Assembly: GCA_029775855.1 (NCBI GenBank)
Contig: JARVJZ010000005.1
Coordinates: 135,817-192,084, forward strand
Source of the DNA: Nitrososphaeria archaeon
GTDB taxonomy: Archaea; Thermoproteota; Nitrososphaeria; Nitrososphaerales; JAAOZN01
Length of the DNA stretch: 56,268 nucleotides
Reading direction: 5' to 3'
Translations under genes and position numbers: made by a program
Shown: piece by piece, positions 51,901 through 54,193 of the stretch
How positions within the stretch are numbered: position 1 is the first letter of the stretch
Layout of the letters: each line of letters opens with the position of its first letter
The notes under the pieces: generated by a model
Database searches by the model: none
What the model saw: the letters and a program-made list of their open reading frames with translations, nothing else
What the model was told of the DNA's origin: nothing

Positions 51901-52138
51901 AGCGCGAAGGATACAAGCGCTGCGTAAAGAATTAGGCTACAACCCCACAGCAATATTGAATTCAGCAAAGATCTGTGGGTTGAATGTTGAATGGGAAGAG
52001 GCGCTTAAACCTCTACTTGATAGGTTGGCATACTTGGTAAGAGTTAAGAAAGTAGAAATAGTGAAGGAAGCCGATGCAAGGTTAAGATGGTTTGAATCTG
52101 AAGTAGATGGTGTGCCGATAAAGATAGCTCTAGGGTGA
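48926..52138 (+). CDS. ileS: isoleucyl-tRNA synthetase
   Basis: EGPPTLNG.PHIGH, GWDTQGLPVE, WTTMP, WCISRER.WGTPLP, EGIDQTRGW, KMSKS. Confidence 0.96.
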   Translation: MSKVLASEPQNIILPELSSRFAPKSIEESVRKRWEDIGLLKLVKERRRGCKKLGFVEGPPTLNGEPHIGHVRGRIIKDLWFRFMTLKGFDVVFRAGWDTQGLPVELQAEKELGLTGSKSDNLKAVGEEKLVEACKKLIQHYYAKWREADRLLGLSMDYDAAYWTYKDEYIEREWRYLEEACKRGLLGEGFRVVAFCPGCQTSLSHAEVSQSYELVEDPSLYYKVKVRELDAYLVLWTTMPFTVVTDVMVGVKPDAEYCFVLVGGEHWIVGKDRLDELMKELGVKEYQVRGVKKGYELEGLRYIHPLQDFIPAQLELDQNPKAHVVVAEEFVDTTTGSGIVHMSPANGQEDFETAVKRGQPIFNPIDDQAKFTDEAGVFAGMFVRDADAKVCELLREKGALLKLGTIKHQYPLCWRSHHKIVWLARREYFYWIDKLGDLAYEAASKVEYFYEPPRNRFLEIIKEKVPWCISRERVWGTPLPIWVCKDCGHKQGYFSRKAILENAIHLPDGPNFELHRPWIDRVIIRCPKCGGKSEREPFVLDTWHNSGAAPYAALGDEYAELVPVAFLTEGIDQTRGWAYTLLIENVILKGAPEAPYKAFLFQGHVLDEKGNKMSKSLGNIVEAFEALSNYPVDALRFYLMWKASPIDSINFSAEELKRRPYQIISTLYHLHIYYYQNSSYDSYNPASHSLSWFRSRGLLKPTDLWLLSKIQKLKKLVSEAYERGRYHEGLRAIEEFLIDDLSQTYIPMTRTIIWDDRPETVYSRFAVYAVLKEALTTLDILLHPVCPYTTEYLYLKARIGEQESILLESWPEVNEELVNTELEDEYDALRTLVSLANSARMAAKIKRRWPLKKALIFASGVSARAVKRHLNTLLEMVNVKEIELREDSSAAPLIYEVKPRMDLLGRNFREKAFTLASALASKPASEVAEEIKSKGFVEVEVGGVRYRIEKEMVVIDAKPKMGYTYSSKDEVMLFLTVERDKDLMAEGMLRDVARRIQALRKELGYNPTAILNSAKICGLNVEWEEALKPLLDRLAYLVRVKKVEIVKEADARLRWFESEVDGVPIKIALG

Positions 52139-52708
52139 ATACTGGAAATACTTCTGAAGAAGACCCTTTTCAGCTACCTTTGTAAGCCAATCGATCTTAG
52201 GAGCATTCAAAGGAGCCTTACCTAAGATTACCTCCAACACTTCCGCGAAGGTATCTGAAGGGCTTTTATTGGATGTGTCGTGTTCACTAACCTTCTTTAC
52301 ACCAAACCTCTTAAGCGCTTCAGCAGCAACCACACCCAGAATCTCAGCTGCAACATTCTCTCTAATCTTATCTTGGCTGTATCCTCTTTCAGCCAATCTT
52401 TTTTCAAGCACCTCTGGCGCACACCTTAAGAGTATAACCAACTCCACTTCACTCTTATTCAAGACAGAGGGTATAAGATGACCGCTCAAGATCATAGGTT
52501 TTCCTACGCTCATAGGTAGCAGAATTCTCCTCAGTTTACTTGTTGAAACCACATACTCTTCACCATCTTTACCTATCACTGCACCCTTTTGAATCGCAAC
52601 CTCGTTAACATCCAGATACTCTACTTGTAGGTGTGAGGATAAAAGGCGTGAAAGGGTCTTCTTACCCGTTCCTGGCGTGCCTACAACCGCTATGATGCCT
52701 TTAATCAT
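52130..52708 (-). CDS. atypical adenylate kinase (AK6/Fap7 family)
   Basis: GTPGTGK, LSGH, RLAERGYS..KIRENV.AE. Confidence 0.88.
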   Translation of the reverse strand: MIKGIIAVVGTPGTGKKTLSRLLSSHLQVEYLDVNEVAIQKGAVIGKDGEEYVVSTSKLRRILLPMSVGKPMILSGHLIPSVLNKSEVELVILLRCAPEVLEKRLAERGYSQDKIRENVAAEILGVVAAEALKRFGVKKVSEHDTSNKSPSDTFAEVLEVILGKAPLNAPKIDWLTKVAEKGLLQKYFQYSP

Positions 52709-52711
52709 ACC

Positions 52712-53212
52712 CTACTTTACCATCCGCAACCTAATCGCCTTCACCAGCAGATAACCTATTATGTTTATTGATATTGTGGAGCCTATTAACACACCTACAA
52801 TAGGGATCTCCCACAGCGGTGAATCCAAAGGTATCTGGGCGAGCCAAGTTATATACCCACCTACTATAAGGCTGACTACAATATTGGCAGATGTGCACCC
52901 AAGTAGCCAAGAGCCTTTGAATCTTAGAGAAGCAACACGCATAGCAAGATACGATGCAACAAGATTAGCAACAGTTCCACCAACCACATCCACAACACCA
53001 AAAGGGCTACCCAATGCATTCGCCACCAAGTTCCCTAAAGTCACACCTACAACAACAGGAAAACCCCTAACGATAGATAGCGGAATAAGCGCATCAGCAA
53101 CCCTAACTTGAAAAACACCAAAGCTTATGGGAAGCAGCGCAAGAACACCAATAGCATAGAGCGCAGCAAAGAGCGATGCTTCCGCAAGACTTCTACTTTT
53201 CACATACACCAC
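52712..53212 (-). CDS. queT: QueT family (7-deazaguanine precursor) transporter
   Basis: AALY, PISFGVFQVRVADAL, GVTLGNLVAN, G.VDV..GT. True start likely GTG at 53203, 6 nt after the SD GGAGGTG. Confidence 0.85.
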   Translation of the reverse strand: MVYVKSRSLAEASLFAALYAIGVLALLPISFGVFQVRVADALIPLSIVRGFPVVVGVTLGNLVANALGSPFGVVDVVGGTVANLVASYLAMRVASLRFKGSWLLGCTSANIVVSLIVGGYITWLAQIPLDSPLWEIPIVGVLIGSTISINIIGYLLVKAIRLRMVK

Positions 53213-53271
53213 CTCCTTACCCGGGGTTTATTAGGCGGAACGGGTGGAGGTGCCCCCACTCACCCGCCTAA
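53210..53271 (-). ncRNA. putative cis-regulatory RNA (riboswitch-like) in the queT 5' leader
   Basis: 8-bp P1 TTAGGCGG/CCGCCTAA; loop contains CACCTCC-ACCCG, complementary to downstream CGGGT-AA-GGAGGTG (SD); TATA-like TTATTTAG at 53300-53293. Confidence 0.6.
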
Positions 53272-53308
53272 GCAGAGTGGTTAAAGAAGCATCTAAATAA
53301 GTGTATTG

Positions 53309-54193
53309 CTACGCTCTGCGTTGGATAGCTTTTTTGAGGAGTATGGGGATCTGTGAAGGCAGTTCTGCTACATTTACGCCGGCGTCGATTAAGGCTGCTC
53401 TCTTCTCCTCTGCTGAGCCTGAGCCTAGTGATATTATGGCGCCTGCGTGCCCCATCCTCTTACCTTTGGGCGCTGATCTACCTGCGATATAAGCTACTAT
53501 TGGCTTCGCTAACCCTTGTCTGCGTATGTATGCTGCAAGCCTTTCTTCTGCATCTCCTCCAATCTCACCTATAACAACTATGGCATCAGTTTCAGGGTCT
53601 GCTTCAAACATCTGAACGACATCAACGAAGCCTAAACCTACCACCGGGTCTCCACCTATGCCTACAGCTGTGCTCTGCCCGAAGCCGCTTCTAGTTAGAG
53701 CCCAAGCTACTTCGTAAGTTAGTGTGCCGCTCCTTGAGACTATACCAACCCTACCTTTCTTAAATAGGTGCGCAGGCATTATCCCAACTTTAGCCACTTC
53801 TGGTGTTATGACCCCTGGGCAGTTCGGGCCTATGATTTTAGCCCCCTTCCTCTCTGCGTGCGCTACTAGGTTTATGGTGTCGTGTATGGGTATTCTTTCG
53901 GTTACTATGATTATCAGCTTTATACCTGCGTCTATCGCCTCATATACCGCTTCCGGCGCCGCTGATGCTGGGACAAAGACTATTGATGTGTTGATTTCTG
54001 GGTGTGATTCTACTGCTTCTGAAACCAAGTCGTAGATAGGCACACCACTAACTGTAGAGCCGCCTCTGTTAGGTGTGACTCCTGCCAGAATCTTTGTGCC
54101 GTAGTTGAGCATAGATGCTGTGTGTGTTGAGCCTTCTCTGCCTGTCGCTCCTTGCACCAACACCCTTGTTTTAGCGTCGATTAGAATCGCCAT
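53309..54193 (-). CDS. sucD: succinyl-CoA synthetase alpha subunit
   Basis: VQGATG, IGPNCPG, SRSGTLTYE, GIGGD, RMGHAGA. Confidence 0.96.
   Translation of the reverse strand: MAILIDAKTRVLVQGATGREGSTHTASMLNYGTKILAGVTPNRGGSTVSGVPIYDLVSEAVESHPEINTSIVFVPASAAPEAVYEAIDAGIKLIIIVTERIPIHDTINLVAHAERKGAKIIGPNCPGVITPEVAKVGIMPAHLFKKGRVGIVSRSGTLTYEVAWALTRSGFGQSTAVGIGGDPVVGLGFVDVVQMFEADPETDAIVVIGEIGGDAEERLAAYIRRQGLAKPIVAYIAGRSAPKGKRMGHAGAIISLGSGSAEEKRAALIDAGVNVAELPSQIPILLKKAIQRRA

Follow-up and report, generated by a model that had tools for sequence, protein, structure and literature searches.

A conserved leader RNA of archaeal queT and other 7-deazaguanine genes as a likely Shine-Dalgarno-sequestering riboswitch

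The queT leader of the Nitrososphaeria window

The DNA considered here, referred to below as the window, is a 56,268-nt stretch from a Nitrososphaeria archaeon (GCA_029775855.1, contig JARVJZ010000005.1, positions 135,817 to 192,084). A QueT open reading frame (ORF; 52712-53212, minus strand) is separated in it from a sucD-like ORF (53309-54193; CoA_binding and Ligase_CoA domains, end TAG at 53309-53311) by an intergenic region that holds, on the minus strand, a structured leader. An earlier note, made from the letters alone, had proposed that this leader forms a stem P1 whose loop pairs with the Shine-Dalgarno (SD) sequence of queT, and all the elements that it named (P1, the loop segments CACCTCC and ACCCG, the downstream CGGGT and GGAGGTG, and a TATA-like TTATTTAG) are indeed present on the minus strand at the positions listed below. 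Comparison of related sequences gives good grounds for regarding the leader (about 53270-53204, minus strand) as a copy of a conserved archaeal cis-acting RNA that is likely to be a translational OFF riboswitch responding to preQ0 (7-cyano-7-deazaguanine) or to a closely related 7-deazaguanine. The features of the locus, in the order of transcription, are:

53293-53300, minus strand: TATA-like box TTATTTAG, located -30 to -23 relative to the motif's first base
53221-53270, minus strand: conserved core of the RNA motif, as matched by the covariance model (62.9 bits, E 2.6e-14)
53264-53271, minus strand: 5' strand of P1, TTAGGCGG, with a conserved GGCGG core followed by an invariant G (U wobble possible)
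53260-53263, minus strand: junction GUGA after P1, its U invariant and the flanking G nearly so in the 150-sequence alignment described below (A6)
53254-53259, minus strand: 5' strand of P2, GUGGGG, an SD-like "anti-anti-SD" whose pairing partner is CUCCAC at 53244-53249; seen in the minimum-free-energy fold
53246-53252, minus strand: anti-SD CACCUCC, which lies in the loop of P1, forms the 5' strand of the pseudoknot and is the exact complement of the SD GGAGGTG
53241-53245, minus strand: loop segment ACCCG, exact complement of CGGGT at 53219-53223
53239-53243, minus strand: junction CCGUU before the 3' strand of P1, with the G and final U invariant and the CC nearly invariant
53231-53238, minus strand: 3' strand of P1, CCGCCTAA, the perfect complement of TTAGGCGG, giving an 8-bp stem
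53221-53233, minus strand: conserved single-stranded tail UAAUAAACCCCGG, an A-rich tract followed by CCC and then RR
53210-53216, minus strand: SD GGAGGUG, 3' strand of the pseudoknot
53201-53203, minus strand: most likely queT start codon, GTG, placed by its spacing from the SD
52712-53212, minus strand: queT ORF, an energy-coupling factor (ECF)-type S component and predicted 7-deazaguanine transporter (Pfam PF06177)

The QueT ORF matches PF06177 with an E value of 7.6e-25 and 88.3 bits against a cut-off of 33.7, and has further in-frame GTG codons at 53210-53212 and 53207-53209 on the minus strand. In the window copy P1 closes a loop of 25 nt, and the CCG of the junction preceding its 3' strand is able to pair with the CGG of the tail (53221-53223). 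In A6 the tail has three invariant positions, two A's and the final C, while the other A's and C's and the GG are nearly so. The pseudoknot core is predicted to contribute -11.3 kcal/mol, rising to -19.2 kcal/mol with the ACCCG/CGGGU extension, and the P2 hairpin GUGGGG/CUCCAC -7.1 kcal/mol. As the 3' strand of P2 (53244-53249) overlaps the anti-SD, P2 and the pseudoknot are mutually exclusive in this copy, which is the sole match (G000:C5:189037-189086, minus strand) in a covariance-model search of the 1.5-Mb genome.

Distribution of the motif and the genes behind it

QueT was searched for in 41 related genomes and the upstream regions were compared, which yielded 11 queT loci from several families with a common motif: GCGGGUG, a variable stretch usually containing CCUCC, and CCGWUCCGC, 3' of which follow YWWANAAAYCCCGG, a few bases and then the ribosome-binding site (RBS). 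A covariance model built from these 11 queT leaders only, with P1 as its sole structure (R1), was run on whole genomes and had a match in 58 of the 151 genomes of the window's order, always exactly one in each; this tally includes one unpublished genome (G107), which was left out of the 57 loci analysed. By family the positives amount to 19/24 genomes in f10, 13/15 in f14, 8/13 in f7 and 6/10 in f12, with no R1 match in the nine genomes of f4. When rebuilt from the 57 copies (R2), the model picked up a single match per positive genome in a phylum-wide sample, 28 of whose 151 genomes carry one, and the best matches in the order and phylum searches reach E values as low as 1e-15. An exact IUPAC pattern, applied to 185,579 species with a single genome per species, found at least 119 stretches, and the model confirms 78 of the 80 pattern loci among the matches listed, whose taxonomic labels are:

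Bathyarchaeota/-ia: 54/80
Nitrososphaerota, Thaumarchaeota or Nitrosopumilales: 14/80
Methanomethylicota/-us: 2/80
Methylarchaceae: 1/80
Hecatella (Bathyarchaeia in the NCBI taxonomy): 1/80
"archaeon": 2/80
Asgard (Promethearchaeota, Hodarchaeota, Promethearchaeati): 3/80
Bacteria: 3/80

Metagenome-assembled records of Methanomethylicus and Bathycorpusculum are among the carriers in this list. Two of the loci with a bacterial label (L119 and L145) lack a model match and were discarded as chance matches to the pattern. The third, L174, labelled Candidatus Acidiferrales bacterium, carries the motif at 66.2 bits, and its QueT is 74% identical, and a neighbouring 126-aa ORF 78-83% identical, to those of Bathyarchaeia-labelled loci, on account of which it is probably a misbinned Bathyarchaeia contig in a bacterial metagenome-assembled genome. 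With R2, a separate search centred on one Asgard-labelled genome (G282) yielded a single match in each of 22 genomes, out of 151 from the Asgard-labelled phylum. Given that ten of these have E values of 2e-8 or less and that several matches lie on contigs of more than 1 Mb, the Asgard occurrences are not binning artefacts. An Asgard-type variant (L227-L231) has CCGUGCU in place of CCGUU, with two extra junction bases, together with a CCUCGC/GCGAGG helix. It scores just 28-30 bits with R2, for which reason more divergent forms of the motif may have been missed by this model.

Public hot-spring metagenome runs also contain the stretch. In three DNA runs (X3, X5, X7) many contigs from other organisms match just the segment from about 53209/53220 to 53268, with unlike flanks, and the summed depth over the motif in hot-spring runs reaches about 1273. 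Several members of these communities seem to carry their own copies, and the contig matches limited to the motif outline the conserved element.

The genes directly behind the motif fall into few families. Among the 57 matches of the order, 30 precede QueT (PF06177), 16 a QueE-like protein, six a DUF5591/ArcS-alpha-like protein and five a membrane protein, so that the model made only from queT leaders recovered the leaders of unrelated genes. The QueE-like radical S-adenosylmethionine (SAM) proteins have QueE models as their best NCBIfam matches throughout, each below its cut-off, and the DUF5591 protein, of about 225 aa, matches models of the archaeosine synthase subunit alpha, also below cut-offs. 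All 27 of the 27 further phylum matches lie upstream of QueT, as do 67 of the 78 model-confirmed loci from the pattern scan among the matches listed, in which four more precede QueE and two DUF5591; the remaining ones are four loci at a sequence end and one ambiguous case (L135). At the latter (L135:6597-6662) the motif is followed by a QueT-like frame split across three frames, which may be a frameshifted queT or an assembly error. In the Asgard loci QueT lies downstream in 14 of 15, the remaining one being truncated. Second genes, in many cases QueC or a glutamine amidotransferase, point the same way: QueC follows queE in L057 (1.4e-49) and queT in L071, L078 and L080 (about 1e-64), and a glutamine-amidotransferase gene follows queE in L024 and L044. 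In family f12 a weak radical-SAM match comes second after DUF5591 (L055:77-874, minus strand; L062:899-1663, plus strand), a pair which we take to resemble the two-subunit archaeosine synthase. Every readable copy, bar L135, thus precedes genes for the import, synthesis or use of 7-deazaguanines (preQ0/archaeosine), and the link to queT drawn at the window extends to QueE-like, QueC and ArcS-like proteins and to a further membrane protein.

This membrane protein, of about 240 aa and multi-pass, lies directly behind the motif in five genomes of family f10 (L017:1557-2279, L035:1567-2283 and L037:1558-2289 on the plus strand; L030:760-1488 and L041:819-1484 on the minus strand) and has no Pfam or NCBIfam match. 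Its neighbours in the ESM Atlas are named "ECF transporter S component" (0.93), which is a lead only. Its alignment to QueT by hhalign extends over just 21 N-terminal columns with a probability of 72.6%, which does not establish homology. From its position it is a candidate for a new 7-deazaguanine transporter.

In the window a P-loop kinase-like ORF of the AAA_18 type (52130-52708, minus strand; PF13238, E 3.9e-19) begins 3 nt past the queT stop and, given this spacing, probably shares a transcript with queT. In the three loci of the same genus queT is likewise followed by an ORF of about this length.

The gene neighborhoods bear on the possibility that the leader is a genuine cis-regulatory element read by a macromolecule, namely an RNA-binding protein, the archaeal tRNA-guanine transglycosylase (arcTGT) or a tRNA sensed by its modification, which would open or stabilize the SD pseudoknot. 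A conserved, structured, pathway-linked leader would fit such a mechanism equally well, its strictly conserved unpaired bases could be a protein site, arcTGT is present in the host, and a bacterial TGT has been reported to recognize an mRNA. However, no regulator gene travels with the motif, neighbors beyond the four downstream families being variable, and these four are enzyme or transporter families with no candidate regulator among them. A small H-type pseudoknot with the SD in its second helix is moreover the pattern of known metabolite-sensing classes, and the range of the motif covers two archaeal phyla of very different gene content. A macromolecular reader is accordingly a minor possibility in our estimate, and recognition or even modification of the leader by arcTGT in particular appears very unlikely.

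Covariation, promoter position and upstream sequence

Covariation was examined in a MAFFT alignment (A6) of 150 of the 151 distinct copies (L174 being left out), each with 20 nt of downstream sequence and fitted to no structure. Duplicates were removed beforehand from this set as well as from the promoter, upstream-frame and helix-position sets, and 53 of the 57 order copies were likewise kept for the shuffle and permutation tests. The paired fraction of cells in A6 is 88.3% overall, compared with 81.1 +/- 0.4 for shuffles and 42-62% when the partners are slid, and 13 of the 17 pairs are changed on both sides. For P1 (columns 3-9 and 35-41) pairing reaches 99%, and three of six pairs show changes on both sides (pair 3:41 with GC 103, AU 33, CG 3, UA 1 and GU 4; pair 8:36 with GC 142 and CG 7; pair 5:38 with CG 148, UA 1 and UG 1). 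RNAalifold, which is unable to predict pseudoknots, independently predicts P1, and P1 only, from A6. The perfect 8-bp stem claimed for the window is thus real and covaries, with only five to six of its eight pairs being conserved across the family.

In the loop/RBS pseudoknot, which joins columns 22-29 to columns 69-76, each of the eight pairs is changed on both sides. Matched variants recognized by eye include CCUCC/GGAGG, CACCUCC/GGAGGUG, CCUCCC/GGGAGG, ACAUCUC/GAGAUGU, ACCUCG/CGAGGU, UUCCCU/AGGGAA, CCAAC/GUUGG, UACCGC/GUGGUA, UUCCGA/UCGGAA, CCACC/GGUGG and CCUCGC/GCGAGG. A contiguous loop/RBS helix of at least 4 bp can be formed in 162 of 162 distinct copies, and one of 5-8 bp in 152. Where an ORF and a start codon could be called (157 copies), the 3' strand occurs in 59 distinct versions, and the distance from the 3' end of the helix to the first in-frame start codon has a median of 7 nt (interquartile range 4-11), which is the position of an SD. 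The covariation score of A6 (0.202 versus 0.102 shuffled) is reached by none of 500 shuffles, and the score of cognate loop/RBS pairs (14.89 versus 12.53 for non-cognate ones) by none of 20000 permutations, counts that overstate the significance because the copies are related. The core of the loop/SD pseudoknot proposed in the earlier note is hence borne out; its ACCCG/CGGGT extension is conserved and barely covaries.

The strictly conserved bases are mostly unpaired, namely the U and G after P1, the CCG.U before its 3' strand, and the A's and CCC of the tail. The helices vary and the peak of conservation lies at the unpaired junctions, a pattern as in known aptamers. Base-pairing between the tail (CCC or CAC) and either the loop GGG or the junction GUGA was looked for by eye and rejected, as the tail variants UCCC, CCAC and UCAC occur with unchanged loops. 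Likewise rejected was compensation within the CCG/CGG pairing, which is unpaired in 11 of 150 copies: the 11 copies with CAA for CGG still keep CCG or UCG.

The A+T fraction of 149 distinct upstream regions is about 0.5-0.6 except between -36 and -22, counted from the start of the model match, where it reaches 0.68-0.87 and peaks at -27/-26. An archaeal TATA box sits at about such a distance from the transcription start, so that the RNA is expected to start close to the motif's first base. The TATA-like box of the window, from which a start just before P1 had been proposed, fits this conserved peak.

The upstream side also bears on the suggestion that the hairpin serves only to terminate sucD, acts as an RNA thermometer or is an inverted repeat due to chance, with queT not being specifically regulated. 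The hairpin lies about 40 nt after sucD with T-rich runs in between, the fold of the lone sequence is not significant (see below), and one contig from an RNA library bridges sucD and queT, all of which would suit such a view. However, the motif accompanies queT, queE and other pathway genes rather than sucD, and the upstream sequence is not conserved even within the genus. When the longest open frame upstream was tallied, in a crude way, for 125 evaluable distinct loci, 77 had it on the strand of the motif and 48 on the opposite one, on account of which the motif is not simply a terminator of the upstream gene. This disfavours the terminator option that the earlier note had itself named as a possible refutation. 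Against a thermometer stands the pathway-specific context of leaders of both low (0.42-0.56) and high (up to 0.73) G+C content, and against chance the single match per genome and the E values already cited. This set of explanations is largely refuted, and we regard it as extremely improbable.

Several observations weigh against the proposed pseudoknot switch, or limit how far it can be generalized. The significance of the structure rests on comparison and not on the lone window sequence: the fold of a 106-nt window segment is not significant (z = -1.25, with 26 of 200 shuffles folding at least as well), and the loop/RBS helix goes beyond what composition provides (less than 5% of mononucleotide shuffles) in just eight of 53 copies. 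In the MAFFT alignment the pseudoknot is just 75.9% paired, with pair 29:69 unpaired in 100 of 150 copies, a mispairing attributed in part to shifts in the alignment register, and the complementarity is weak or displaced in L060, L068, L014 and L057. P2 is 86% paired in A6, with 26 cells changed on both sides versus 6.5 in shuffles; it is nonetheless missing in short forms and hence not universal, and an equal score is obtained for a control shifted by -2 columns. The CCG/CGG extension is 95% paired, almost invariant and essentially devoid of covariation, and the alternative stem GGGUG/CACCC, at 91.6% pairable, is the same as shuffles and shows no covariation, which speaks neither for nor against it. 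Of the two alternative pairings once proposed to free the RBS, GTGGGG/CTCCAC thus retains moderate support with the proviso of the short forms, and CGGGTG/CACCCG shows no covariation; P2 is best read as an optional tuning element. With respect to distribution, QueT loci of relatives (L009, L010, L015 and L016) are without the motif, L013 being ambiguous, and R1 has no match in families f13 (0/24), f15 (0/23) and f9 (0/11). The sole evidence from RNA libraries is one 154-nt metatranscriptome contig over 53185-53329, which includes sequence preceding the predicted start, may stem from read-through or from DNA, and is uninformative on the start, the strand or true transcription.

Regulatory interpretation and known riboswitch classes

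The universal parts of the element (P1, the pseudoknot of loop and RBS, the junctions with their conserved bases, and the tail with its A-rich tract and CCC) constitute an SD-sequestering H-type pseudoknot topology, from which, together with the gene context, we infer small-molecule binding and the following mechanism. Transcription would start at or beside the first base of P1, which would close a loop carrying the complement of the gene's own RBS. A ligand pocket may form at the junction of P1 and the pseudoknot from the conserved unpaired GUG after P1, the CCGWU, and the A-rich tract and CCC of the tail; the ligand would stabilize the H-type pseudoknot between loop and RBS and thereby hide the SD. 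In the unbound RNA the anti-SD could instead fold into the local P2 with the SD-like strand (in many lineages, the window's included), leaving the SD free. The structural model and the functional inference of the earlier note are in this sense supported as far as computation reaches.

The proposal of a preQ0 OFF switch follows from two points of background that are given in PMC5372724: bacterial queT and que genes lie behind preQ1 riboswitches, and in archaea preQ0 is the free base inserted into tRNA. The genome of the window, which is 98.4% complete, is compatible with such control. It encodes an arcTGT (PF01702, E 2.3e-80), and searches of it returned no convincing QueC (just two partial PP-loop matches of 22.5 and 20.2 bits), no PTPS/QueD match, no DUF5591 match and no convincing QueE, the QueE query giving weak radical-SAM matches (26% identity). 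Based on this gene complement, the hot-spring host probably salvages preQ0 rather than making it, with QueT as its only source of the base, and with such dependence on import a feedback control of queT would be sensible.

The regulated gene set is, on the other hand, unable to separate preQ0 from preQ1, 7-carboxy-7-deazaguanine (CDG) or archaeosine base, which is a further point against too specific a reading. As the identity of the ligand comes from gene context only, the element might be a riboswitch for another ligand (guanine, another purine, CDG or archaeosine base), or might work with ON logic, the ligand favouring P2: P2 and the pseudoknot exclude one another in the window copy, so that either could be the bound state. 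However, all the regulated genes belong to the synthesis, use or import of 7-deazaguanines, for whose genes end-product repression is the known bacterial logic (PMC5372724). In addition P2 is absent from short forms while P1 and the pseudoknot are universal, due to which the latter two would represent the conserved ligand-bound fold. Another ligand or ON logic is therefore improbable in our view, and the preferred interpretation remains an OFF switch for preQ0 or a close 7-deazaguanine.

With regard to known families, a scan of window positions 52900-53600 against Rfam 15 at E <= 10 gave no family at the motif, including preQ1-I, -II and -III, and the same holds for 15 diverse motif loci; five weak matches away from the motif (snoRNA, CRISPR and lncRNA models, E 5-10) were set aside as noise. 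The element, which by eye had been judged not to be preQ1-I, would work like preQ1-I and -II, yet it is not a member of preQ1-I, -II or -III, as the models of all three classes fail on the window and on the 15 copies. The closest parallel is preQ1-II (RF01054; the COG4708/queT motif of Lactobacillales), whose architecture is an H-type pseudoknot with the SD in its second helix and an embedded extra hairpin. The archaeal element resembles it in lying upstream of queT (QueT being downstream in 30/57 order matches, 27/27 further phylum matches, 67/78 scan loci among the matches listed and 14/15 Asgard loci), in holding the SD within the pseudoknot and in having an embedded extra hairpin. It differs in its conserved bases and in the absence of any match to the Rfam model, in its embedded hairpin, which sits not in the 3' linker but within the first loop, after P1 and ahead of the anti-SD, and in its range, which comprises Thermoproteota and Asgard-labelled genomes as opposed to Firmicutes. 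Its likely ligand would differ too, preQ0 being suggested by the insertion of this base into archaeal tRNA.

The likeness to preQ1-I (RF00522) concerns topology only, with one stem and an A-rich 3' tail pairing into the loop in H-type fashion; both are small, may take SD bases into the pseudoknot and control que genes and transporters. Apart from the lack of a model match, the archaeal element is about twice the size, with a loop of 16-27 nt and a linker of 17-25 nt, its second helix is of 5-8 bp and wholly on the RBS, and its conserved junction bases (GUG, CCGWU and CCC) are unlike those of preQ1-I. PreQ1-III (RF02680) similarly precedes queT-type transporters and pairs an aptamer loop with a downstream RBS; its model again does not match, and the archaeal element is much smaller and has its RBS about 20 nt from P1, where that of preQ1-III is distal. 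Only 86 examples of preQ1-III are counted in PMC5473149, which makes it a very rare class.

The element displays the features generally expected of a riboswitch, namely a covarying, conserved structure in 5' untranslated regions that is tied to a single pathway across distant lineages, unrelated gene families and two phyla. The covariation upstream of archaeal queT genes that the earlier note had called for is present in both P1 and the pseudoknot of a conserved element. A literature search, whose coverage extended to sources other than subscription journals and supplements, returned no report of the motif or of an archaeal preQ0/preQ1 riboswitch, and the accessible part of PMC5737381 does not mention the motif either. 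From these comparisons the element is a candidate for a new class of 7-deazaguanine-linked, SD-sequestering riboswitch, and it would be the first class apparently native to archaea.

A more far-reaching formulation would make it a fourth class of 7-deazaguanine riboswitch, unrelated in structure to the three known ones, the first native to archaea, tuned to preQ0 and acting by metabolite-controlled SD sequestration; it would be common to Thermoproteota (Bathyarchaeia, Nitrososphaerota and Methanomethylicota) and Asgard-labelled genomes, and would mark the ECF-S-like membrane protein as a new 7-deazaguanine transporter. For this full set of propositions taken together we find belief and doubt about evenly balanced.

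Riboswitches are regarded as essentially bacterial. In a 2017 survey (PMC5473149), thiamine pyrophosphate (TPP) and fluoride riboswitches are the only classes recurring in archaea, with a count of six riboswitches in Crenarchaeota and one in Thaumarchaeota. These two are bacterial classes that are also found in archaea, whereas the new motif is present in 28 of 151 phylum genomes and has bacterial labels in only three of the 80 pattern loci among the matches listed. It occurs in about one-fifth of the sampled Thermoproteota and about one-seventh of the sampled genomes of the Asgard-labelled phylum. If the proposed riboswitch is real, archaea would have evolved or kept metabolite-sensing RNAs of their own, and the element would offer a simple handle on SD-dependent translational control in these organisms as well as supplying a preQ0 sensor. 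Its small aptamer, of about 50-70 nt, would lend itself to structural work and to comparison with preQ1-I, -II and -III. In uncultured lineages, it would aid the annotation of genes for 7-deazaguanine salvage and synthesis, including the new candidate transporter.

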